A DNA stretch of 64,000 nt from Eledone cirrhosa. Taxonomy: Eukaryota. The position numbers were made by a program, and so were the translations under genes. Under the pieces are notes generated by a model. The model worked only from the letters and a program-made list of their open reading frames with translations. It did not search any database and was not told where the DNA came from. Each line of letters begins with the position of its first letter. The stretch's first letter is position 1. This document shows, one piece after another, positions 14,331 through 57,054 of this stretch. The stretch is taken from positions 246,698,001 to 246,762,000 of the forward strand of contig OZ024742.1 in the NCBI GenBank assembly GCA_964016885.1, written 5' to 3'.

Positions 14331-14476
14331 ATTATTGCCGTTATTATGGTTGTCACTATTATAAAATAACTAAAATAACTATTTTATAGCAACTAACTGT
14401 AATTGCAGTTTTCTCTATCTGAGCAACCTATATCTTATGAATAAAATAATTTCCATATGTGGATAACTTCTTTTAT

Positions 14477-15089
<613 letters not shown>

Positions 15090-26539: not shown

Positions 26540-29468
26540 CCCTGTGACCAAGAAATACCGGGATGGCGGCCGGCGGGGAATAGCGTGTCTCTCGGGAAGG
26601 ACGACCCCTCTAGTCTTGGTTGACACTAGTCCTAGAAGTGGTAACACGAAATGATTACCCCTTGGCGGTTAAGGATAAAACACGACAAAATAAAATAAAT
26701 GTCAAATGATAAAATCTCATACCGGATCGGCCGTCACCCGGGTCAAAAAGGGCCGCATCCCTCAGAGAGGAACCAGCCTGGGGTCGAAAAATCAGCTAAT
26801 GGTTCAAACCTTCCCCTCACTTCGGAGCTGGAGACCTCCCATAAACGGAATACTCCTACTGTTGGTTCTCCATGCTCATCACCTAGAAATCCAAAGAAAA
26901 AGAGAAGGGAAGATAATAAAAGTCAAGGGAAGATAATAAAGAAGTCCTTGAGGCCTTCTACACTGCCATGTACTACCCATCAAATAGATCGAATACAGAA
27001 CAGACATATATCAACTGGAAAAAGAAACATCCCGAAAAAAGAGGCAATATTGACAGTAACAAACTAGCCAATATACGAAGAAATATTGTTAAAAAAAAGT
27101 TACTAACTGATATAGAAATTGATCAGATCAAGCTATTAGCATAAAGTCAGCGAAGGGAAAATGAAACTTGTGTCAGTGAAAACGAGGTAAATTGTAACAC
27201 TTCGAATCCCAGGGTTGGGGCGGAATCACTGACAACAGAACAAATTAAAGAAAGGATCGAAAAAGTGGAGGGAGTGCATGCTCAAGATGAAACACAAAAT
27301 GAAAACAATGAGATCGTAAATGATAAGGAAATGAATGAGAATGAACTTGCCAACTTGAAGGATGAAATTATGATCGAATGGTTGAAAATGAAAGAATCTG
27401 ACATGGGGGAACGAGACACCCTCCAGAACTCCAAACAGAACAAAAAGATAATACACAAGACTAACATAATTCTCAAAAACATTATCATCACAAACAAACT
27501 AAACATTACTGATTTAAATCATCTCTATTATGCATCGGCTAAAGTCACCACTCCCTTATGTGGAGTGAAAATGAAAAAACAAAGGAATCCCCACAAGAAA
27601 TCTAGTGGCAAGAGAACATCAATCGCCAAATAAACCTTCTCCGATCTGACATAGAAATTTTAACAAACTACAAAGTAGGTGAACATGTTAAACAAACTAA
27701 ACTTAGAAAATTGAAAAGAAAATACAGTATAAAATCAACAAGTGACATAGACATGCTGATAGAAATAATCAAGCAAAAAGTGTCGGCCAAAGCTGCTCGT
27801 ATAAGGCGCTTTGAAAAACGATCTAGATTCTATAAGGACAATAATATGTTCAAAAACAACCAAAGAAACTTCTACAGAAAAATTGGCAAGTCAACAATAA
27901 CTGCTAAATCAATACCACCCAAGGAGGAAGTGCAAGAATTCTGGGAAAAGATCTGGGCCGAAGACAAACTTCATAATATACATGGCCAAGGGATAGACAG
28001 ACAAATGAAAGATACAGCTCACCTTGAGGAACAAATATGGGAAAATATAACAGTTGAACAGTTGCGTGTGGCTCTTAGAAAAACCAGCAAATGGAAATCC
28101 CCAGGAAAAGACAAAATACCAAATTTTTGGATAAATGCCTTCACAGAGTCTCATGAGCTGTTAGCCCAACTTTACAATGAAATAGTTAAGGAGCCAGAAA
28201 CGATACCATCATGGCTAGTTAACGGCATTACATTCCTGCTTCCGAAGAATGATGAGACAAACAATCCCAAAAATTACAGACCGATAACTTGCTTGACCAC
28301 AATGTATAACATTTTAACATCAGTCCTAACTGAATATACATATGACCACCTGATAACAAATGGCCTATTTCCCAATGAGCAGAAAAGATGTAAACGAGGC
28401 TCATATGGCTGTAAGGATCAGCTTTTGGTTAACAAAATGATACTGGAAGATTGTCATAATAAACACAAAAATCTATCAATTGCTTGGATGGATTATAAAA
28501 AAGCATTCGATAGTTTGCCACACAGTTGGATTGAAAAATGTTTAGAGATTTTCAAAATATCGAAATGGCAAGAAAAGCCTCTGTATGGAAAATACCCAGA
28601 AAGAGCTAACAATGTTGATGTTGACAAAACTTTAACCCATCAGTGGTTGGGATCCTCTGGACTGAAATCGGAGCTGAAGGACTGATTATATCAGCACAAG
28701 ATCAGTGTCTGCCCACAAAAAATTACCAAACCAACATAATAAAAAATGGATGCAACCCATTGTGCCGTGTATGTAAAAAACAACCAGAGACCATTGATCA
28801 TATAATTTCAATCAGCAGTCCTATAGCTCCAACCGAATACCTAAACAGGCATGACAGAGCTGCACAATACATACATTGGATAATGTGTAAGTATTTTGAC
28901 CTGCCCCATCAAAAGAATTGGTGGGAGCATCAACCACCTCCCATACTTGAAAAAGATCACATCTCAATCTTGTGGAACTTTAGCATCCAAACAAACAGAA
29001 AAATAGATGCAAATAGACCTGATATAATACTGAAGGATTTTAAAAAGAGGGTATGCCTGCTAATTGATATGTCCGTTCCAATAGACAAGAATGTATTTAT
29101 AAAACCATTTGAAAAATTGAGCAAGTATAAGGACCTGGAGATAGAAATTGGAAAAATGTGGAAATTGAGAACTAAAACAATACCAGTGGTTGTAGGCGCT
29201 CTAGGAATGATACCTAAGGGGTCTAATGATTACTTATCGCAAATCCCAGGAAACCCGCGTATAGGAGAAATACAACAGATAGTACTAATGGGAACTGCCC
29301 ATATACTAAGGAAGATTCTGTCAATATAAGTACATCACAAGTCTAAACACCTAAAGATGCATGTGTGTGTATGTGCTTTCTTGAACATGGCGGATCTTGT
29401 TGTCTCTTGAGGTCACTGGTTGTGACTTGGTGATAACTCGTATGAACATAAAGCAATATAAATGCAAC

Positions 29469-30199: not shown

Positions 30200-33100
30200 A
30201 TTTTTGGGGCCCTTTCTGCCCGTGTGTTTGTTTGTTTATGTGTGTCCGTATACAGCGTGGTGATAATGCCACACAAGGGCCAAGTGGGATGGCGGATCCA
30301 CAGATGGCTATGTAAACATACATTCGCCAATCCTCGATAAGAGTGTTTAAATATCGAACATAAACAGTTCGAATAACGGTGAAATGGAGACTAGAACGTC
30401 ATGTGACAGACTCTCACCCAACAGGTGCCCCCTGGCTCAGCAGCAGGAACCTGACTGTCAACGAAATACTGCTGATGTTGGAGGAAGAAGAAGAAGGAAA
30501 GGGGCCAGAACCAACTGGACGAAAGAATTGAATAGAACTGTTATGCAATGCTACCTGAAAAGTAACCCCAAGGAGAGGGGCTACAGGAGACGGATGCATA
30601 ACATCTGGAACGAGATTGGTTTATTTAAATTAGATGAACAAAAATTGGCCGGGCAGGCTCGGGTAATAAGAACTAATGGGTGGATAAGCGAGCTGGAACT
30701 GGAGGAACTGAGCAGAGAGAATGGCTTGGAGATGGCGGGTGTAGTATGCCAGACAAGCGAGCCGGCGGGAAATGAAGGTGAGGAGGTCCTGAGAGCGGAG
30801 GAACCACCCGAAGCAGACAATGATCTGAATACTGAGATAAATAATACCTGGAACAGAGATACGGCCACTGAGGAGATGAATGCTGACGGGCTAGGACAAG
30901 ATTCGGTTGACATCCTAAATTTAGTGGTAGATGAGTTGAACAATGATAGTGGGAGACCTATGAACCTAAGATTTGTAGACAGGAAAAAGTTAAAAGAAAC
31001 AACAGCTAAGGTAAACAAAGTCATCCCATACCTTGAGGCGAGGAGTCTTCACCAGTGCAACAATATCCTCAAAGCAACAGCAAATACGGTGAGGAAACTA
31101 CTTGGTATAAAAGCGAGAGGAAACAACAGACAAGAAAGAGCAGAGCCGTGGTGGAAGAAGCGACTGAGTGGGCAAATCGGGGAAATGAGAAATGACATAG
31201 GAAAGCTTGAGTCACTACTGAATGGGACACTAAAAAACATAGGCACTAAAAATAGACTGGAAATAAAATACAAAACTAGGAGTAAAAAGCTAAACATTAT
31301 CATAGAGGAATTGAAGCAACGCATTGTAGCAAAGAGTGCCAAAATCAGGCGATACGAGAACAGAGTCAGTCAGTATAAACAGAACCGCATGTTCGACAAC
31401 AACCAGAAGATGCTGTTTGGACAGCTTGAGGGGAAAGAAAGAGGCACCGACTTGATCCCTGGGGCGGAACAAGCTAAAACATTCTGGAGAGGAATATGGG
31501 AGCAGGATGTTAGACACAATGCCCAGGCAGGGTGGATTGAGACAGTACAGAGGGAGATCGGTGAGCAGGCACAGCAACAGACTGATTTGAGTATCACAGT
31601 TGAAACTCTTAAGGGGCAAGCCAAAAAACTAACCAACTGGAAATCACCAGGCCCAGATGGTGTGCAGGGGTATTGGATTAAACATTTAACATCCCTCCAC
31701 CCGAAGCTGACGGCCATGTTCAATGACTGCTTGGTGTCGGGTGAGGTGCCAGAGTGGTTGACAAAAGGTACCACAGTTCTGATAATGAAAGACCGAATCA
31801 AGGGTAATGATGTTACCAACTATAGACCTATCACATGTCTGCCCGTAATGTGGAAACTGTTGACGAGCATTGTGTCTGAGGAAATCTACCATCACCTCCA
31901 CACAAACAACTTGTTGCCGGACGAACAGAAAGGATGCCGAAAGAAGTCACGTGGTACAAAGGACCAGTTGCTTATTGATAAGATGGTAATGGGGAATTGC
32001 AGGAGGAGACACACTGATCTTGCCATGGGATGGATAGACTACAGAAAGGCATTTGACATGGTGCCTCATTCCTGGATCACCAAAAGCCTGGAGATCTTCA
32101 GGGTGGCAGATACCATCAGACAGTTGCTGGGCAGGAGTATGGGGTCCTGGGAGACAGAGTTGACATCAACTGGAGTATCCTTGGGAAGCGTGAAGATCAA
32201 GAGAGGTATCTTCCAGGGAGATAGCCTGTCCCCTCTGTTGTTTGTCCTTGCCCTGATGCCCTTGACCATTATGCTGCGAAAAGTGAGAGCAGGATACAAG
32301 TTGGGAAGGGGAGAGCTTACCATCAATCACCTCCTCTTCATGGACGATCTTAAGCTCTTCGGGAAAAGTGAGAAGGAGTTGGATGTGCTTGTTGACACTG
32401 TCCGTATTTTCAGCAGTGATATATGTATGCAGTTTGGTATTGGTAAATGTGGAGTCATTGTGATGAGGAGGGGTAGGTTGAGCAGAAGTAACGGGATCCA
32501 GATACCAACAGGTGAGATGATAAAGGAAATTGACTCTGAGGAAGGATACAAGTATTTGGGCGTTCTGGAGGCTGATGGCATAAAGAACAAAAAAATGAAG
32601 GAATTGTTAAGAACTGAATACATTCGGAGAGTAAGGAGCGTATTGAAGTCACATCTGAACAGCAGAAATGCCATAAGCGCAGTAAATTCCCGAGCTGTGT
32701 CTATTATTAGGTACAGTGCGGGAATTCTGAGATGGAATGTTGCTGAACAAAAAGAAATGGATAGGAAGACTAGGAAGCTATTGACTATCTACAACATGTT
32801 CCACAAGAGGAGTGATGTCGATAGACTCTACCTAAGGAGATCTGAGGGTGGAAGAGGTCTTATCAGCATAGAGGACTGTGTTCAGATGGAGAAAAACAAC
32901 CTATACAAATACGTGACCTATAGTAAGGAGCCAATGCTCAGAGCTGTACTGAAGGAGGGGACAGTAGGCCAGGGGATACCCAAGGAGGAAATAACATCAA
33001 GGAGGAAGAGCAGCCTTAAGGGAAAATCCCTTCATAGTACCTTCTTTGAGAAAACTGAATTTAGAGATCCACAGACATGGAACTGGTTGAGAAGAGGAGA

Positions 33101-33850
33101 CCTCAAAAAGGCTACAGAAGGAATGCTAATGGCTGCGCAGGAGCAGGCCCTCAAAACGAAGTGGTTGAAGCACCATATCTACAAGGAGGAGGCTAGCCCA
33201 CTGTGCAGGATCTGTGGAGAGAGAGAGGAGACTGTGGCTCACATTGTGTCCGAGTGTAAACACCTAGCCCAGACCCACTATAAGGGCTGGAGACACGATG
33301 TGATGGGCAGGGTGATCCACTGGCACCTGTGCAAAGTAAACAATCTACCACATTCTGAGAAATGGTATGAGCATAGGCCAGAGGCGGTGATTGAGAACAG
33401 TCAGGTGAAGGTGCTGTGGGATTTTAGGATACAGACGGACAAAAAACTGGAACACAATAGACCTGACCTGGTGGTTGTGGACAAAGAAAAAAGATCGTGC
33501 CTGATTGTGGATGTGGCCTGCCCGTTCGACACGAGAGTGCAAGAGAAGGAGAGGGAGAAAATTAACCGATACCAGGACCTAAAGTGGGAGGTGAAAAGGA
33601 TTTGGAACTGCCATGAAGTCAAAGTGATCCCGATTGTCATAGGCGCACTGGGGACTATCTCCAAAGGTTTCCAGGGATGGTTAAAGAAAATCGGCCCCTT
33701 CACGCTTTTTGGAACGCTTCAAAAGGCATGCTTGCTTGGAACGGCAAGAACCCTCCGATACGTCCTGAATATCTGAGGCTGCAGGTAGTGGCTTGATATT
33801 CAATCCAACGGACTTTCCAGTTAACCAACATCAATGACTGAGATTCAAGG
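30200..33850 (+). mobile_element. Full-length R4/Dong-type non-LTR retrotransposon family A with (AAT)n tail
   Basis: Single intact ORF, ~75-nt 3' UTR, AAT tail at 33851-33900; 5' boundary approximate. Confidence 0.92.
30384..33776 (+). CDS. Reverse transcriptase-CCHC zinc knuckle-restriction-like endonuclease polyprotein (1130 aa)
   Basis: NYRPITCL, DYRKAFDMVPH, GIFQGDSLSPLLF, HLLFMDDLKL, YKYLG, GGRGL, CRICGEREETVAHIVSEC, RHD, NRPDLVVVD, DVACPFD, EKINRY. Confidence 0.97.
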   Translation: METRTSCDRLSPNRCPLAQQQEPDCQRNTADVGGRRRRKGARTNWTKELNRTVMQCYLKSNPKERGYRRRMHNIWNEIGLFKLDEQKLAGQARVIRTNGWISELELEELSRENGLEMAGVVCQTSEPAGNEGEEVLRAEEPPEADNDLNTEINNTWNRDTATEEMNADGLGQDSVDILNLVVDELNNDSGRPMNLRFVDRKKLKETTAKVNKVIPYLEARSLHQCNNILKATANTVRKLLGIKARGNNRQERAEPWWKKRLSGQIGEMRNDIGKLESLLNGTLKNIGTKNRLEIKYKTRSKKLNIIIEELKQRIVAKSAKIRRYENRVSQYKQNRMFDNNQKMLFGQLEGKERGTDLIPGAEQAKTFWRGIWEQDVRHNAQAGWIETVQREIGEQAQQQTDLSITVETLKGQAKKLTNWKSPGPDGVQGYWIKHLTSLHPKLTAMFNDCLVSGEVPEWLTKGTTVLIMKDRIKGNDVTNYRPITCLPVMWKLLTSIVSEEIYHHLHTNNLLPDEQKGCRKKSRGTKDQLLIDKMVMGNCRRRHTDLAMGWIDYRKAFDMVPHSWITKSLEIFRVADTIRQLLGRSMGSWETELTSTGVSLGSVKIKRGIFQGDSLSPLLFVLALMPLTIMLRKVRAGYKLGRGELTINHLLFMDDLKLFGKSEKELDVLVDTVRIFSSDICMQFGIGKCGVIVMRRGRLSRSNGIQIPTGEMIKEIDSEEGYKYLGVLEADGIKNKKMKELLRTEYIRRVRSVLKSHLNSRNAISAVNSRAVSIIRYSAGILRWNVAEQKEMDRKTRKLLTIYNMFHKRSDVDRLYLRRSEGGRGLISIEDCVQMEKNNLYKYVTYSKEPMLRAVLKEGTVGQGIPKEEITSRRKSSLKGKSLHSTFFEKTEFRDPQTWNWLRRGDLKKATEGMLMAAQEQALKTKWLKHHIYKEEASPLCRICGEREETVAHIVSECKHLAQTHYKGWRHDVMGRVIHWHLCKVNNLPHSEKWYEHRPEAVIENSQVKVLWDFRIQTDKKLEHNRPDLVVVDKEKRSCLIVDVACPFDTRVQEKEREKINRYQDLKWEVKRIWNCHEVKVIPIVIGALGTISKGFQGWLKKIGPFTLFGTLQKACLLGTARTLRYVLNI

Positions 33851-38540: not shown

Positions 38541-39189
38541 TAGTCGACTGATCCAAATATTAGCCGACATTATGATCGTTAGTCCAATAAACTTACCACA
38601 AGGCCACGTGCCTTTACTCTGCTCAGGCTTGATAGAACAAAACTACGGTACAAGATGGTGCAACAAATAGGCGGCTATCCTACAGACTCGTCTGTGATTC
38701 GGACAAAATGCCTTTCCGTTATATATTCCAGCTTCTTGTGTTCTGAATTTCAATTTTAGGTAGCGAATTGGCTGAGTCGTTAAGGTTTAGGATAAAAAAA
38801 AACTTTGCTATATTTGTTCCGGGTTTCTACGATTTTTGTTCAAAATGCCACCAAAGTCAACTTTGTTGTTTAATAGTCGCACAAAATGTCGCGAAGTATT
38901 TATTCAAACACATTGAGTTCTGAATTCAAATTCCACCAATGTCAGCTTTGATGGTAGACTGAAACTGTAACTTGGTTTGACACCATCACTTGGTCCTGGG
39001 GTACCTCTTAAAGGAACCTAATCTGTTAAAATTTTTTTTTTTTTTTTTTTGTAATTGTTTTTTAATAAGATGGTTTGTGAAGTGTGAAGAAAAGTCACAG
39101 CACGTCATCGTGGCATTACGGGGCTTCATCTGAATTTTGAGAGATATGAATCCTGTATGTATGGCCCCACAACCTCTAATGGTTGGTGT

Positions 39190-39390
39190 AAGACAGAACA
39201 AAAGAGAGACAAAATAAAGACCCGGTCCCCGAGGAGGACACGGAATGTGTGACAAAAGGGCTTTGACAATATATAAACAACCATCCGATTATCGCACCAA
39301 CCAACCAGAAATCTATAATAAATTGAAGTGAAAACCAACATGTGCGTGTGGTTTTATTGGCAGCATGACCCTCCGAAAGTATAACAATAT
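39190..39390 (+). mobile_element. Old diverged copy of the Penelope pLTR with decayed hammerhead
   Basis: Ends ...CATGACCCTCCGAAAGTATAACAATAT(AT)n like 52925-52952; decayed core CCGAGGA-GGACAC...GTGAC-AAAA. Confidence 0.8.
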
Positions 39391-39532
39391 ATATATATAT
39401 ATATATGAATGTATATATAGTGTATTTGGTAATACACTGTATGCTTATTTAAAACCATTTTGAAGACATTACGCTATTGTTTTAAAGTAGTGACTATGTC
39501 ACTTACTTCTTTTTTCAACAAAAAAATGGAGA

Positions 39533-39580
39533 TAAGCTGAAAGATCTCTGTTTCATACTGTTGGTATTCCTCAGAGCTTA
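39533..39580 (-). ncRNA. Type I hammerhead (F11)
   Basis: UAAGCU-CUGAGGA-AUAC-CAACA-GUAU-GAAA-CAGAGAUCUU-UC-AGCUUA. Confidence 0.8.
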
Positions 39581-39943
39581 GCACTCCCCTTGACTGTTGA
39601 AATATTATGAATGTTGGATTCTTATAGAATTCCAGAAATAATCAGGAACTGATTATACAGAGCGGTTGCCGATCCAGCAAAAATTGAAAATTAGAATTGC
39701 TACTCTGAAATAGCGATGTTTATATGAATGTATATATAGTGTATTTGGTAATACACTCTATGCTTAATTAAAAGCATTTTGAAGACCTTAGGCTATTGTC
39801 CTAAAGTAGTGACTATGTCACTTACTTCTGTTTTCAACAAACAAAGGGAGATAAGCTGACAGATCTCTGTTTCATACTGTTGGTATTCCTGGAATTCTAT
39901 AAGAATCCAACATTCATAATATTTCAACAAACAAGGGGAGTAC

Positions 39944-39991
39944 TATGCTCTGATGAATACCAACAGTATGAAACAGAGATCTGCCAGCTTA
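39944..39991 (+). ncRNA. Type I hammerhead (F11), U16.1C change
   Basis: UAUGCU-CUGAUGA-AUAC-CAACA-GUAU-GAAA-CAGAGAUCUG-CC-AGCUUA. Confidence 0.7.
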
Positions 39992-40132
39992 TCTCCCTTT
40001 GTTTGTTGAAAAAAGAAGTGACATAGTCTCTACTTTAAAACAATAGCGTAAGGTCTTCAAATTGAGCATACAGTGTATTACCAAATACACTATATATACA
40101 TTCATATATACATCGCTATTTCAGAGCAGCAA

Positions 40133-40182
<50 letters not shown>

Positions 40183-40294
40183 ATATATATATATATATAT
40201 ATATATAAATACGTTATTCCGGGTTGAATCGGAGGTAACCACAGTAAGTAAGGTACTCAATACATTGCAGAGTATAAAAGTTTTAATATAGATG

Positions 40295-40348
40295 AGATTC
40301 TACAGGACTAGAACTGTTGTTTCATTCTTTAGAAATCATCAGGAATCT
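40295..40348 (-). ncRNA. Type I hammerhead (F12) in fold-back 40280-40408
   Basis: AGAUUC-CUGAUGA-U-UUCUAAAGAA-U-GAAA-(CAA)CAG-UUCUAGUC-CUG-UA-GAAUCU; mirror copy at 40347-40390 lacks the stem I 5' strand. Confidence 0.75.
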
Positions 40349-40406
40349 GATGACTTCTAAAGAATGAAACAGTTCTAGTCCTGTAGAATCTCATCTATAT
40401 TAAAAC

Positions 40407-43853: not shown

Positions 43854-43952
43854 CTTTCTTTATTAACCACAAGGTTTACACAAAGTAGACATTAATGACA
43901 GTACAGGACAATACTGGACGGTACAAAAGGGCATAATAATAATAATAATAAT

Positions 43953-44537
43953 CATTTTGACCTGCCCCATCAAAGGAATTGGTGGGAGCATCAACCACCT
44001 CCCATACTTGAAAAAGATCATATCTCAATCTTGTGGAACTTTAGCATCCAAACAGACCGAAAAATAGATGCAAATAGACCTGATATAATATTGAAGGACT
44101 TTAAAATGAGGGTATGCCTGCTAATTGATATGTCCGTTCCAATAGACAAGAATGTATCTATAAAAACATTTGAAAAATTGAGCAAGTATAAGGACCTGGA
44201 GATAGAAATTGGAAAAATGGGGAAATTGAGAACTAAATCAATACCAGTGGTTGTAGGCGCTCTAGGAATGGTACCTAAGGGGTCTCATGATTACTTATCG
44301 CAAATCCCAGGAAACACGCGTATAGGAGAAATACAAAAGATAGTACTAATGGGAACTGCCCATACACTAAGGAAGATTCTGTCAATATAAGTACATCACA
44401 AGTCTAAACACCTAAAGATGCATGTGTGTGTATGTATGTTCTTTCTTGAACATGGCGGACCTTGTTGTCTCTTGAGGTCACTGGTTGTGACTTGGTGATA
44501 ACTCGTATGAACATAAAGCAATATAAATGCAACTATA
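43953..44537 (+). mobile_element. 5'-truncated R4/Dong family B copy between (AAT)n tracts
   Basis: Near-identical to 28893-29471. Confidence 0.92.
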
Positions 44538-46366: not shown

Positions 46367-46415
<49 letters not shown>

Positions 46416-46630
46416 TGTAAGTATGTATGTATACGTACATACATATATGTATACAGACGTACAGTAGTATGTATTTATATACATACACGCACACACATAT
46501 ATATATGCACGTATCGGTTTACCGAACATTTATTATAATGCTCGGTTTGTTTGTTTGTAAACAAACAAACAGCCCGAATTACGCCGTACAGTGTTTAGGC
46601 AACCACGTCACGTTTTTGATCAACACAGGA

Positions 46631-46673
46631 ACGATGTACTAGTTTCAAGCTTATTAGCTATCGTCAGCATCGT
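46631..46673 (-). ncRNA. Canonical minimal type I hammerhead (F8)
   Basis: ACGAUG-CUGACGA-U-AGCU-AAUA-AGCU-U-GAAA-CUAG-UA-CAUCGU; perfect 6-bp stem I, palindromic CUAG, GUA site. Confidence 0.88.
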
Positions 46674-46948
46674 ATACCTTCCTGCCAGATGGTTGAACGT
46701 CTGAAAGTATGTACTTTCCTTATGCATATTCCTGTATACATATATGTATGTACGTATACATATTTACATTTAAGTAAGTGCCGTACTAAGACTGAGAAAT
46801 GAAATTTCGTTTCATTCTATTCCATTTATCGTTTTCGGTGCGCCCGGCCGACTGAACTCACTCGATATACAAATTAGGCTGCTCAGCCGTTAATATGCAT
46901 AAGGAAAGTATATACTTTCAGACGTTCAACCATCTGGCAGGAAGGTAT

Positions 46949-46991
46949 ACGATGCTGACGATAGCTAATAAGCTTGAAACTAGGACATCGT
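46949..46991 (+). ncRNA. Minimal hammerhead (F8), U16.1G change
   Basis: Identical to 46631-46673 except the site reads GGA. Confidence 0.75.
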
Positions 46992-47429
46992 TCCTGTGTT
47001 GGTGTTGAACAAAAAGGTGACGTGGTTGCTTAAACACTGTACGGCGTAATACGGGCTGTTTGTTTGTTTACAAACAAACAAACCGAGCATTATAATAAAT
47101 GTTCGGTAAACCGATACGTGCATATATATGTGTGCATGCATGTATGTATATATATACATACTACTGTACGTCTGTATACATATATGTATGTACGTATACA
47201 TACATACATACTTACATTTAAGTAAGTGCCGTCATAAGAGTGAGAAGTGAAATTTCGTTTCATTCTATTCCATTTATATATATATATATATATATATAAT
47301 TTTGTTATATTGTACTGTGTACTCTATCGGAAATATTGATTTCGAAACAAGGTCACCAATTCAAGTGAAGATGAAAATTAATTATATCGACCCTAGTACA
47401 TGGTCTTCGACAATAAATTAATTATTTCA

Positions 47430-51038: not shown

Positions 51039-51805
51039 CAATTAAAACATTATTTGTCTCTAATAACTTCATTGTTGAATTTATTTAGATGGATTTGACT
51101 GCTATTTCGAGCATCATTATAAGCCTGTCGTACTGTTCTAATACATATAAAGAGATATGTTCATTTAGTAATTGAATGGCGCAACGCGCTGGACACCATG
51201 CGGTTTCGGAAACGACATGGTCTGTATTCTTTTATTCATATCTCTTCTAATTCCAAAGAATTCGATATCGGATGAAGGAACTGAAATTCTTCCAATATTG
51301 GTTATGCAAATATTTTGAAAAATAATGTTGTTTCTGGTATTCCAGAAATCATGGTTGGCGAACTATATGAGTAAAACAGATTTATTTTAGTTTTCTAGCT
51401 TATACCCCAACCAAATTGAGATTTTGGCTTAAGTTCAGTATGTGGATAAGGTCATATAAAATGAATAAAAAAAGGTGCGCAAAGTCAACTGAAAAATAAC
51501 GAAACAGCGGACCGTCCCTTCTCAACAGTTGACCTCTGGAGGTTCTCATGGTTTCAGTTCTTTAAGGTCGATCCGCGAGCTTCAGTTCACATGCGACACT
51601 AACAAATGAACATAAGACAGATCGATTGGTCTTCCGACTATGTACAAATAGAATATAATTGCTACAAATGGAAAGATGCTCACATACATACATACATATA
51701 TACACACTTACCTAAAAACCTTCCTATATACATACGTACAAACTTATATACATATGTAATACGTATACACTTACGTAATACATACATATATATATATATA
51801 TATAT

Positions 51806-52656
51806 ATCATAAATAATGTCCCTAGAATTATTAGATAAAATATATACTATTTCCTCTCCCAATTAGCATAATTAACCATATAAAAAATCAATTAGACCAG
51901 GCTATAAGAATAAAGACTTCTATGAAGAAATATTTGATAAATAACCGAAAGCAGCCTCTTCGCGGTTGACCACAATAGAGTATTTACCCAACATTTCAAC
52001 AGCATGTAGAAACTGACCAAATATACCGTCAACCATACACAATTAGGTATAAAATTAAAGTTAGAAGAAATGCGTACATGCCGTAATTATATCCCTACTA
52101 TGATTTCGTTCGTATTTTGAGATATCCTATTAAGGATAAATCTCGTGTATCGAACTCATCAGGAGACAAACTCAATAGGACAGTTAATTTTCCAAAGCGA
52201 TCCCGCCAGAAATAGATTAAAAAAATGGCTAAGAATCGTGACGTGGCAGTGGTCAAGTTAGAAAGAATGTGATTAGTTGCTTACAGCGAGTAGGCTGGTT
52301 GCTAGAAAGCGTAGCCCAATATCGCCCAAATTGCATCTCAACCCAACGGGAGATTATTAAATATAAAGATTTACATATACATAAAGTCACAGATATATAT
52401 GTGGCAACCGTTCACGATGTGGCTCAATGAAGAATTAATAATCAGAGCAATATATCATAAATCATGTCCCTAGAATTATTAGATAAAATATATACTATTT
52501 CCTCTCCCAATTAGCATAATTAACCATATAAAAAATCAAATAGACCAGGCTATAAGAATAAAGGCTCCCATGAAGAAATATTTGATAAATAACCGAAAGC
52601 AGCCTCTTCACGGTTGACCACACTAAAGTATTTACCCAATATTTCAACAGCATGTC
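51806..52656 (-). mobile_element. Non-coding 648-bp terminally redundant hammerhead unit (F13)
   Basis: 51806-52006 repeated at 52454-52655 (period 648); hammerhead in the unique part; left end in (TA)n. Confidence 0.8.
52090..52168 (-). ncRNA. Type I hammerhead with extended stem II (F13)
   Basis: UGUCUC-CUGAUGA-GUUCG...GAGAU.UAUCCU-UAAU-AGGAUA-UCUC...CGAAC-GAAA-UCAUAG-UA-GGGAUA. Confidence 0.78.
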
Positions 52657-52751
52657 GCGCATGCGCAGACTGAGCACACAACACACACACAGAAACAAAA
52701 TGGCGTAGGACAGAACAAAGGAGAGGCATAGAAACAAAGAAAGGAATCCCC

Positions 52752-52796
52752 AGTCACTGAAGAGGTCACAGAGTGTGTGACGAAAGAACTATGACT
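52752..52796 (+). ncRNA. Hammerhead in 5' pLTR (F5)
   Basis: AGUCA-CUGAAGA-G-GUCACA-GAGUG-UGUGAC-GAAA-GAAC-UA-UGACU. Confidence 0.85.
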
Positions 52797-52926
52797 ATAT
52801 ATAAACAACTATCTGGTTGTGGAACCAACCAACCAACCAGAAATTTATAAATTTATAAATTTATTATAAATTTATTATAATAAATTGAAGTGAAAGCAAC
52901 TGGTGCGTGTGTTTCTTATTGGCAAC

Positions 52927-55900
52927 ATGACCCTCCCAAAGTATAACAATATCGGTTTCAACACACGATTTCAGATAAAGAATCTTGCTAAACAAATTCA
53001 GAAACGAAATATCGTAAGCCTTAGCCAGGCTAACAAGATACTGAAAACCACCATGTTCTGTTGTCTACGAAAAACCATAACATCTCGCAACTACACTTCA
53101 TAAAAGAATGCGCCTCATCCCGAGTTTACACCAACACCATCAACACCGACGTTAGAAGATTACAACTTACCAAAAAACAAGCAGATAGGCTAAAACGAAC
53201 ATTAATTCTAAACATAAAAAAGAAGATCTATAGAGAATTAAGTCATCAAGAAAAACATAAGCGTAACCTAATACAAGAAATAGCTAGGATCACCACACCA
53301 AGAGAGAAACTAATATTTATAAGCCTTATACGCCCTGAAGAACAGTACATTACTCAAGAATGTGATAAGCACTTTAACAAGAAACTGAAGTGGCTTAAGC
53401 AGATAAAGCTAAATCAGGATACTATAGAGAATACCAATAGATATCCCGACAAAATTGACGGTATAAATATGGCCGACACCTCATTAACAGAAGAGTTCAA
53501 CAACAACAATAACACAAATATATATGGTAACACAAGAATAGATAACGATGAGATGTCTGTGTTATGTTTACCCCCGAAATTTGCGACATTCAAGAAGGTA
53601 AATATGATTAGTTGTCTGTCACAAATAGAAAAATCATTTACAAAACTACGCTGGAGCCTCAAAAACAAAAACAAAAACAAAAGCAACAATATACGCACAC
53701 ACATATACAACACACATCCCAACAACAACAGACACACAGACACAAACAACAATAACAACAACACACACACCAACAACAACAACAATAACAACATACCCAG
53801 AAACAACAACAACAGACACGCAGACACAAACAACAATAACAACACACACAACAACAATAACACACACGGAGACAACAACAACACACATCAACAACAGCAC
53901 ACATCAACAACAACAACACACACACATTCAATGCCTCTCACCACCACCACAATCTTAACAAACACACAGACACAGAAAACAAGTAATGACAGTAGCACAG
54001 AAATCATAGAAATAAGGGAAAGTAATAGGATTAAAAAGAGAAGGGAGACTAAGGACAAAGAGAATAACCAAGACGAACACACAGACACACAAAATACGGT
54101 AGATAACAACAATGAGCCAGTGGAAAGAGACAGGAGTAATTGTGAGAGACATAGAAACAACCATGAGGCTGTTGGTGGAAATAGAAATAGAAACAACACA
54201 ACTAACAATAACAATAGCACTAGTACACATAAAGCAGCAGCCTGGAACTCTACGTTTTATAATCCCTCCGATAAATCATTCGACCTGCGACGAGTCCACG
54301 CCACGACTTTACCATTTAACAAACGCACGCAATTGCCGTCGCAGGTCGATGAACAAACAGAAGCACAATTTAGTATAGCTAGATCCGAACTTAGAAATAT
54401 TATAGAATAGTATAGCAAGAAGCATAATAGAATGGAGGCCCAGCAACTGGGAGAAAAATCTGCAAATGGCTTGCGTAAGCTCATGCAGCGCTCACGTAAT
54501 GGAGAAATAGCATGCTTTCCAACAGACAAGTCTGGCAGAATGTCGGTTGACAGCCTGCCAAACTACATCCAGGCAATGCAACCCCACATCACTAACACAA
54601 GAGAGGTAACACCACAGGAGCATGAGGATAGAGAAAAAGGCCTCAATGCCCATATGGTGATGTGGACGAATATAATGCAGCCCAACAAAAGGACTGCCAA
54701 CAACTTCCAGGCCTGGAACAATGACGTGCCGGCGTTGTATGGGCTTCGAAAAAACCATAAAACGGGCTGTGACCCTGTCGCGGGACCACCAACACGGCCA
54801 GTCTGTGGAGCTAACATTGCTAGTAACTACAGACTGTCCTACTTCCTCTCCCTGATCATACGCCCCATCATTGAAATGTCCCCAGATGTATGTGACAGCA
54901 CGGAGGACCTCCTCAGCAGAATCGGCGTGAGTAACCGATCTGGGGACCTAACAAACTGCATAATAGGCAGTATGGATGTTGTGTCCCTGTATCCATCTAT
55001 TGACGTGGATTTTGCTGTGGAGAAATGCATAGAAATGATCAGTGAGAGCAAGGTTGAGTTCCGTGGGATTGATACCAGTGAGCTGGGACTCCTACTTAAG
55101 CTTACCTATAGTAATAATTACCTAGACACATATGACCTTAGCAACCTGTGCCCTACAAGACCAGCAAGAGGCAGACCACCTACCATTACCTCAATGGCCA
55201 AGAAAACCCACACAGATAGATGGAACGGGTGGACCAGAGCCATACGGACACCCGAAAACCACGATGAACTGAAGAAAATGATTGCACATGCGGTAGGGGC
55301 CAGCATAAAACTAACCCTTAAGGAACATATGTTCAAATTTAATGGAAAAACATATGCCCAAGAGGAAGGAGCAGCCATTGGTGTTAGCATTGCAGGCGAC
55401 ATAACTAACTTATTCATGGTATGGTGGGACAGTAGACTTAAACTTAAACTTAAAGAACAATTAGAAGACCCCTTAACCCTGATAATGTACTCCCGCTACG
55501 TAGATGATATAAACATCGTAGTTAAGACACCCCCACTAGAGAACAGTCAGGAACTAGAGAAAAACACAATGGAAAGCATCCAGCAAATAGCAAACTCCAT
55601 CCACCAGAGCATTAGAGTTACTATAGACTACCCAAGTAAACACCCCAACCATCGATTAACTGTACTAGACACAGAGCTCTGGTTAGATACCATTAACAAC
55701 AAAAAACAAATCCTCCATTCCCATTATGCCAAACCCATGACTTCCAAACATCTGATCCACCGAAACTCGGTCGTTTCGGACCATACCAAAATCAACATAC
55801 TGATTGCGGATTTGGTACGGGTGATGAGAAATGTGTCCCGCATGTGCAACCCCGAAGAACTAGAGAGACACATACAACACTTCATCCACCGTATGCAGTT

Positions 55901-56628
55901 CTCTGGCTACAATCAGAGAGATAAAATCAGAGTGTATAGAGGAGCCAGAACCAAATGGGAAAAAAATGGGAAATAATGACATAAATGGGACCTGCCCCTT
56001 GTATAGGAGCAAATTTTGGAATAGAATAGAAAGAACTAGGAACAAGGCTAATAGAATAAACTCATGGTATGATAGCAATAAATACCAGAGTGTAATGTTC
56101 ATCGATACAACCCCTAGAGGTGAATTAGCTTACAAATTTAGAAGGGCCCTAAATATACATAAACTCAATATTAAGATAGTAGAAAGACCAGGTACCTCCG
56201 TAAAAACACTTATTAGCAAGACATACCCTTTTCAAAGACCATCATGTATAGATAAGAAATGTATAACCTGTAAAATAAGCCCCCATATTAACTGTAAAAC
56301 TAGAAATGTAGTGTATAGCATAAGATGTACTGAAGGACAATGTAGAGACAAAAATATAGTGTACATAGGTGAGACAGCGCGTAGTGTAGGGGAACGGATA
56401 AATGAACACTGGCGAGACCTTCAAGATAATAAAGAATCATCTGTACTCTACCAACATGCTAAAATAGAACACAAGAGTAAATTAGAGAACATAGAAATAA
56501 AAATAGAATCTACTCACAGAAAAGACGCAATGTTTAGACAAATTACAGAGGCAATAAACATAAAAGAATTACAACCAAAATTCAATAGAAAATATGAGTG
56601 GAACAGCAAAATCACAACTTACAATTAA
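52927..56628 (+). pseudogene. PLE RT-GIY-YIG ORF with three lesions
   Basis: ATG 52927 lies in the pLTR; frameshift ~53055; in-frame TAG 54408-54410; +1 shift in an A-run ~55960. Motifs: PTDKSG, LYGLRK.HK, PTRPV, SMDVVSLYPSI, GAAIG, RYVDDI, VLD, CxxxxCxxC linker, NVVYSIRC...C...YIGET.R...RINEH. Confidence 0.9.
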
Positions 56629-56786
56629 GGACAAAATGAAAACACACATACACATAGAACAAACAACCAACCAGTAACATGTAAATAAACAAATAAATAA
56701 ATAAATAAATGAACATAAACACACACAGAAACAAAATGGCGTAGGACAGAACAAAGGAGAGGCACAGAAACAAAGAAAGGAATCCC

Positions 56787-56831
56787 AGTCACTGAAGAGG
56801 TCACAGAGTGTGTGACGAAAGAACTATGACT
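56787..56831 (+). ncRNA. Hammerhead in 3' pLTR (F5)
   Basis: Identical to 52752-52796. Confidence 0.85.
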
Positions 56832-57054
56832 ATATATAAACAACTATCTGGTTGTGGAACCAACCAACCAACCAGAAATTTATAAATTTATAAATTTATT
56901 ATAAATTTATTATAATAAATTGAAGTGAAAGCAACTGGTGCGTGTGTTTCTTATTGGCAACATGACCCTCCCAAAGTATAACAATATATATATATATGCA
57001 TGTATGTATTCATGCATATATGTATGTATGTCAGGTATGTATGTCAGGTAACAT

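Follow-up and report, generated by a model that had tools for sequence, protein, structure and literature searches.

Metazoan retrozymes that lack long terminal repeats (non-LTR retrozymes) have been described by Cervera and de la Pena 2020 (PMC7229834) and in a preprint by Li et al. (10.64898/2026.07.22.740005), and it has been proposed in these sources that they are moved by Penelope-like elements (PLEs). So far, such movement in animals has been argued from shared ribozymes, from co-occurrence, and from similarity to the pseudo-LTRs (pLTRs) of PLEs. For PLEs themselves, a tail on one arm only has already been published, and microhomology joins at the 5' end without a target site duplication (TSD) have been described (PMC3846280). 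We have analysed a stretch of 64,000 nt from Eledone cirrhosa (hereafter the window; contig OZ024742.1, positions 246,698,001 to 246,762,000, of the 3.0-Gb assembly GCA_964016885.1), in which a copy of a non-coding family with a predicted hammerhead ribozyme, F13, is joined head-to-head to a PLE. All positions at this locus are those of the window.

The fused locus itself is probably an ordinary layered insertion. Its main interest lies beyond the locus, in a putative retrozyme that displays the full set of PLE footprints and in a near-strict rule of one end per strand in inverted insertions. F13 adds evidence of an anatomical kind to the arguments listed above, as its footprints are those of a PLE (two-ended, primed at TA and inverted) although the unit is non-coding and does not resemble the PLE beside it.

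Structure of the fused locus

A first-pass annotation of the window described a (TA)n tract, a minus-strand F13 unit with a 648-bp period, a separate junction, an intact plus-strand PLE and a second (TA)n tract. This order and these orientations were recovered; the separate junction and the intactness of the PLE were not.

51682..51808, no strand: left-hand (ACAT)n/(TA)n tract that served as target for the F13 3' end; the TA-rich part ends at about 51808
51802..52655, minus strand: F13 copy (proposed non-LTR retrozyme) made up of a 648-bp unit and a 206-bp repeat; its 3' end is family end 1 and its 5' end is truncated at the join
51802..52007, minus strand: F13 terminal repeat, unit positions 1-206, terminating at end 1
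52090..52168, minus strand: predicted type I hammerhead of F13 with its core at 52162-52156; stem II is long, stem III short and palindromic
52350..52365, minus strand: internal copy of the second F13 3' end, unit position about 298
52450..52655, minus strand: internal repeat of F13, which differs from its terminal counterpart at 9 sites in 198 bp
52652..52656, no strand: head-to-head join without TA spacer; ATGT and one unmatched letter
52657..52952, plus strand: PLE 5' pLTR, including 26 bp once taken for a junction
52752..52796, plus strand: predicted minimal type I hammerhead of the 5' pLTR
52953..53012, plus strand: 60-nt tail separating PLE end 1 from end 2
53034..56628, plus strand: PLE coding region, broken
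53034..54407, plus strand: N-terminal part of the PLE with an Asn-rich stretch
54408..54410, plus strand: in-frame stop codon
54411..55973, plus strand: reverse transcriptase (RT) part
near 55960-55966, plus strand: frameshift
after the frameshift, to 56628, plus strand: C-x4-C-x2-C knuckle and GIY-YIG endonuclease (EN)
56719..56987, plus strand: PLE 3' pLTR, with a predicted hammerhead at 56787-56831, lacking about 54 bp of its upstream part and stopping at end 1
56985..56997, no strand: right-hand (TA)n tract that served as target for the PLE 3' end

No TA lies between the two halves, while both outer ends abut (TA)n; end 1 of F13 is paired with end 1 of the PLE. The ATGT at 52652-52655 matches F13 and PLE alike, and position 52656 matches neither. 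The 25 or so bp at 52656-52682 had been described as a junction. Since 52657-52682 is the upstream part of the PLE's own pLTR, present in most of 30 pLTR loci compared, the join is direct; this piece looked foreign because the 3' pLTR in the window has lost about 54 bp there, a loss flanked by microhomology.

The left flank is an old repeat (best other copies 71-82%) and the right flank a young one, and searches of the genome with both flanks returned no paralogous empty site. A TSD cannot be read here because the target is (TA)n, and microsatellites dominated the repeat-finder output over the whole window. When the chimeric DNA was used as a genome query, no second copy of the join was found among the 40 scored of 1,444 candidates. 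It is highly improbable that the assembly has artificially united two repeats. Among contigs from four sequencing runs over 51060-52830 no piece crosses the left TA tract or the join, the contigs being short in repeats and ending before the tract, which would suit an artefact; against it, both halves bear private letters found nowhere else, the join lies inside a 379-Mb contig with a single-copy left flank, and similar joins exist at other loci.

The F13 family

F13 is abundant. A genome search gave 4,732 first-look candidates, of which 40 were scored, with best matches of 94-97%, and the exact pattern of end 1 followed by TA has 811 genome matches, compared with none for a control. The unit is GC-poor (35%), has neither an LTR nor a primer-binding site (PBS), and occurs in tandem, up to about three units (L022); the 206-bp repeat pair of the window copy is 95.6% identical. 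That F13 is non-coding and unrelated to the adjacent PLE, as first proposed, is supported: its longest stop-free frame has 65 codons, and comparison with this PLE yielded no significant similarity (best E 0.14). No recurrent coding neighbour was found either, RT or EN matches lying near only 3 of 134 single-arm blocks, all of them artefacts or set apart by TA.

The assignment of a ribozyme to F13, already made in the first-pass annotation, rests on a type I hammerhead motif, pairing, and covariation. In 30 copies, 95% of stem cells are paired and 25 cells carry double changes, against 0 of 500 shuffles; these copies were picked for variety, and as related sequences can beat such shuffles the result is support rather than proof. 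About 195 pieces share the conserved core. In the window copy, stem III carries rare changes at two positions (52099 and 52103), and the cut is predicted after 52096. Rfam scans, including 51810-53000, returned microsatellite noise only and matched no hammerhead family.

Insertion anatomy was studied in 244 unique blocks, drawn from the window and from 382 loci. Of these, 109 are self-inverted, 75 are simple and have TA on the 5' side, 1 is complex, and 59 were classed as other. This sample is non-uniform, as best matches are mixed with first-listed pattern matches on four contigs, and low-complexity noise makes up some of the blocks. The positions of the 3' ends are confined to two fixed sites about 90 nt apart, at unit positions 206 (end 1) and 298 (end 2). 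F13 insertions thus show AT-rich TA targets, two 3' ends with a tail, 5' truncation and inverted copies. Because this is the anatomy described for PLEs (PMC8557442, PMC3846280), F13 is best classed as a non-LTR retrozyme moved by PLE-type machinery, and the earlier proposal of such movement holds when judged by anatomy. The homogeneous repeats inside F13 insertions agree with a putative circular template. At L187:600-960 and L188, similar inserts resembling short interspersed nuclear elements (SINEs) lie near the same F13 unit position, perhaps marking a subfamily.

Self-inverted insertions

Where both ends of a self-inverted insertion could be resolved, they were almost always one of each kind: end 1 with end 2 in 90 of 93 F13 insertions (16 more were not resolved) and in 44 of 46 PLE insertions (17 more). 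For the two families together this amounts to 134 of 139, the remainder being end 2 with end 2; end 1 with end 1 was seen in 0 of 93 and 0 of 46, respectively. Between the two arms of 70 F13 inversions, 0.33% of subfamily-polymorphic columns differ, compared with 3.56% in 1,933 random pairs. The arms thus match in their subfamily letters and were therefore copied from one template. Cases such as L234, L242 and L259, where neither of the arms is contained in the other, speak against a simple fold-back mechanism of copying. From these patterns we infer that inversions result from two primings on one RNA, with one start site per DNA strand. Both RT start sites carry short AUAU words able to pair with a TA primer.

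In the literature searched (mainly freely readable main texts, without supplements) we found neither end 1/end 2 counts nor a same-template test for PLE-type inversions. The rule and the shared template of the arms tie two start sites seen in vitro to two DNA strands, and they offer a direct bench test of the PLE inversion mechanism.

Two fixed 3' ends, 40-100 nt apart, were seen in at least eight TA-ending repeat families; in self-inverted insertions of these families an end of one kind is mostly paired with an end of the other, with some exceptions. At L145:1700-1960, L171:1210-1345 and L174:2250-2335 the DNA joined to the F13 5' end is a copy, in inverted orientation, of what lies on the far side of the TA tract. 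It looks as though the TA end had folded onto its own flank and been primed there; these three were rejected as joins between unlike families.

Probable order of insertion

Repeats of one F13 arm differ at 0.42% of subfamily-polymorphic columns (90 pairs), against 3.56% in the 1,933 random pairs. They start out alike and can therefore be used as a clock. In the window, the F13 pair differs at 9 of 198 positions and the pLTR pair by one substitution plus one indel over 270 (Fisher p 0.002, or 0.034 when the indel and the 54-bp loss are counted), which bears out the earlier remark that the F13 repeats are the more diverged. In 41 other PLE copies, pLTR and body carry 1.20% and 1.21% rare letters; the two age equally, and so the pLTR clock is unbiased. 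Rare letters, scored by frequency thresholds, number 15 in 834 for F13 and 15 in 2804 for the PLE (p about 0.001), a roughly threefold load in F13; counting unique letters is not valid for F13, since changes recur among its 250 copies. By age, the window PLE falls below the 10th percentile for 47 copies of the PLE, while 90% of 138 F13 copies exceed 1.09%.

A 19-mer bearing two private letters of the window F13 occurs once in the genome. No other F13 copy has these private letters as a set, and no parent locus is present in the assembly; the window F13 is therefore not a late copy of an old locus contained in it.

We consider it probable that F13 came first and the PLE later, in two separate events, the TA spacer having been lost by microhomology joining of the PLE 5' end. 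The starting point is F13 as a closed non-coding tandem unit, whose type I hammerhead is conserved and whose insertions have the anatomy of PLEs. It would have been copied from circular or tandem RNA into (TA)n by the protein of a PLE, which need not be of the adjoining family, with priming at F13 end 1. Later, the PLE endonuclease would have cut the TA tract on the 5' side of F13, and RT primed at PLE end 1 would have copied nearly the whole PLE. The end of the PLE complementary DNA (cDNA) might then have annealed via ATGT to F13 DNA exposed by resection. This would have deleted what was left of the TA and, possibly, an inverted second arm that F13 once had. Joins of 5' ends to non-TA DNA are frequent, and joins that clip a neighbour exist (L170, L115, L220, L321).

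Joins between unlike families

The 59 blocks classed as other were sorted by eye. Dropping 36 (noise, diverged F13 running on, short self-arms, or short TA or other microsatellite at the join) left 23 direct joins. Ten of these are head-to-head with another TA-ending family, or eight without two doubtful cases.

Head-to-head F13 joins with TA-ending families: window, L002, L009, L103, L116, L122, L146, L187, L333, L343 (L122 and L333 doubtful)

The other 13 comprise three very short or inverted flank copies, two uncertain cases, two SINE-like elements, one join into the 3' side of a neighbour, and five joins to other DNA. These unlike-family joins ignore the end 1/end 2 rule: three pair end 1 with end 2, three or four pair end 1 with end 1, and the others could not be assigned. 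On the PLE side, such joins were seen only in the window and at L431 (L041 is unclear) among 133 blocks with a 3' end. The proposed genome-wide check for heterologous head-to-head fusions thus showed that those of F13 with other TA-ending families recur; a second F13-PLE join was not found in the PLE and F13 block samples.

Several related arrangements were seen. A pLTR-like piece with a hammerhead core at L116:2150-2350, like that of a second PLE family whose RT is in L103, is head-to-head to F13; a similar piece at L138:356-473 faces another TA-ending family, and was rejected as a direct join since a short TA separates the parts. SINE-like elements with (GAT)n tails lie head-to-head on F13 5' ends at L011 and L108. 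L170 was also rejected as an unlike-family join, because it joins into a clipped self-inverted neighbour.

The first-pass annotation had proposed that both target ends were primed in one event on two RNAs. By this account, both ends of a PLE-made (TA)n break were primed, one on F13 RNA (possibly a late transcript of a decayed copy) and one on PLE RNA, and the cDNAs annealed by ATGT. Both elements end at their exact family 3' ends at TA, and a microhomology of 4 nt falls among the values seen where F13 self-inversions are joined (mode 2 nt). Two-ended priming is routine, to judge from the 109 self-inverted blocks, and unlike-family head-to-head joins are in excess. The Poseidon enzyme PAc nicks and extends both strands in vitro (PMC11167929), and the same kind of product has been reported for L1 (PMC11702581, PMC13174262). 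Nevertheless, the halves differ in apparent age, no parent F13 haplotype exists in the assembly, and in normal inversions a single template is used and end 1 is paired with end 2, a rule that unlike-family joins, including the end 1/end 1 join in the window, break. The excess could also come from loss of one arm of self-inverted insertions, and retrozyme-like and SINE-like (GAT)n elements join likewise (L011, L108). What stands of the proposal is that two-ended priming is normal and that unlike-family joins recur; at this site we regard a single event as possible but rather doubtful.

Sequential insertion is favoured here because the age gap outweighs the prior for two-RNA events, and because an end 1/end 1 join breaks the rule of single-event inversions. 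Several observations weigh against it. The rare letters of the PLE are clustered, with 10 in 55659-56649 and none in about 590 pLTR columns; the clocks are therefore overdispersed and the p-values optimistic. The F13 mutation rate may also exceed that of the PLE. Contigs from the four sequencing runs, which end before the left TA tract, showed no allele bearing F13 by itself. In non-targeted families, tails adjoin TA tracts about three times as often as heads (337:113, an approximate count, as fuzzy matching mis-assigned some terminus clusters), so that naive layering predicts the opposite ratio of joins. Yet 8-10 of 23 joins are head-to-head and only one enters the 3' side of a neighbour (binomial p <0.001), an excess that persists after adding three or four joins of other heads onto clipped F13 tails. 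But head-to-head joins can also arise by layering, if the near arm of a resident self-inverted element is removed by the insertion that comes later, as is partly seen at L170, and TA runs are shorter at heads than at tails (median 19 vs 28 nt).

It is unlikely that F13 and the PLE were complete, independent neighbours, with TA or other DNA between them, fused later by repair deletion at a fragile TA tract. The age gap, the microhomology at the join, the existence of 3'-clipped F13 ends joined to other DNA and the microhomology-flanked 54-bp loss in the 3' pLTR are compatible with such a deletion, but it would be expected to give mostly tail-to-tail or tandem joins, of which few are seen. To a lesser degree, the PLE 5' end retains a whole pLTR, as for an RT stop rather than a random deletion point.

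Layered insertion thus remains our preferred reading of the window. As a class, two-RNA events may nonetheless occur in this genome, with the precedent of L1 (PMC11702581, PMC13174262). We tentatively suggest, as a possible though not a probable scheme, that separate RT complexes with different RNAs fill PLE-cut (TA)n breaks from both ends, so that RNAs of retrozymes, of PLEs from other clades and even SINE-like RNAs would be captured two at a time in single events, in about 3-4% of F13 insertions. Normal inversion would then be one complex using two sites of one RNA, one per strand, and the window would be the retrozyme and PLE case. If the recurrent unlike-family joins are indeed single events, two different RNAs were copied into one break.

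The PLE and other elements of the window

The pLTRs at 52683-52952 and 56719-56987 are 99.3% identical. Matches to RVT_1 (E 7e-4) and GIY-YIG (E 5e-4) are below the Pfam curated cut-offs, and a search against PDB gave a single weak RT match; the domain order and the pLTRs are as expected for an EN+ PLE. The element was first taken to be autonomous, which the in-frame stop and the frameshift contradict for this copy. Upstream of GIY-YIG it has a C-x4-C-x2-C knuckle that conforms to the CX2-5CxxC motif defined for Neptune/Nematis (PMC8557442), and on this motif its type is predicted to be Neptune/Nematis. The family is large, with 14,502 and 13,100 exact genome matches for its two ends. An Asn/Thr-rich low-complexity stretch in the N-terminal frame (53700-53930) recalls the N-rich inserts of rotifer Penelope elements (PMC3846280).

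The insertion near 14535, cited earlier as a PLE with an inverted copy of its own pLTR, does have a self-inverted pLTR of the same family, but no PLE body: it is a solo pLTR (14474-14893) whose forward arm stops short of end 1. An old diverged pLTR and several hammerhead-bearing, self-inverted, TA-targeting elements are found at 39184-39400, 39407-40137, 40208-40406 and 46408-47220. At 30351-33776 there is an uninterrupted 1,141-aa RT frame of the long interspersed nuclear element (LINE) type, with broken relatives at 27145-29329 and 43899-44390; no relationship was found between it and the PLE RT.

Comparison with known systems

No report of a retrozyme joined head-to-head to a PLE was found in the literature searched. 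F13 shares several features with metazoan non-LTR retrozymes: it is non-coding and GC-poor, its units stand in tandem and carry a type I hammerhead, and its many copies are dispersed and co-exist with PLEs. Its unit of about 650 bp is longer than the 170-400 nt typical of these elements, but within the range of 51-972 bp given in the preprint (10.64898/2026.07.22.740005). Unlike them, it has a long stem II insert and no detectable similarity to the pLTR of the neighbouring PLE. The evidence for PLE mobilisation of F13 (two fixed ends, TA priming, inversions) is absent from the passages on metazoan retrozymes.

The window PLE resembles the EN+ PLEs Neptune and Nematis (PMC8557442; PMC3846280) in having RT, a C-terminal GIY-YIG domain and a C-x4-C-x2-C knuckle ahead of it. 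Its family shares with them pLTRs with minimal hammerheads, an optional one-arm tail, inverted 5' copies, a microsatellite target and an Asn-rich stretch. By contrast, the tail is 60 nt rather than 30-40, the window copy is broken, and on its 5' side an unrelated retrozyme takes the place of an inverted copy of the PLE's own pLTR.

With Poseidon PAc in vitro (PMC11167929), the present insertions have in common two adjacent RT start sites that delimit a tail, cutting and extension of both target strands, and an AT-rich target. There, no strand difference in start site was observed, whereas here inverted insertions almost always use one site per strand. Finally, L1 twin-priming chimeras of two RNAs (PMC11702581; PMC13174262) also consist of RT products in opposite orientation joined with microhomology. 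The window displays the opposite orientation, the direct join and the two 3' ends at the target of such a chimera, with halves of unequal age. The L1 chimeras were shown by de novo events or by a TSD and matched age, whereas in the window the ages of the halves are mismatched and any TSD is hidden by (TA)n.

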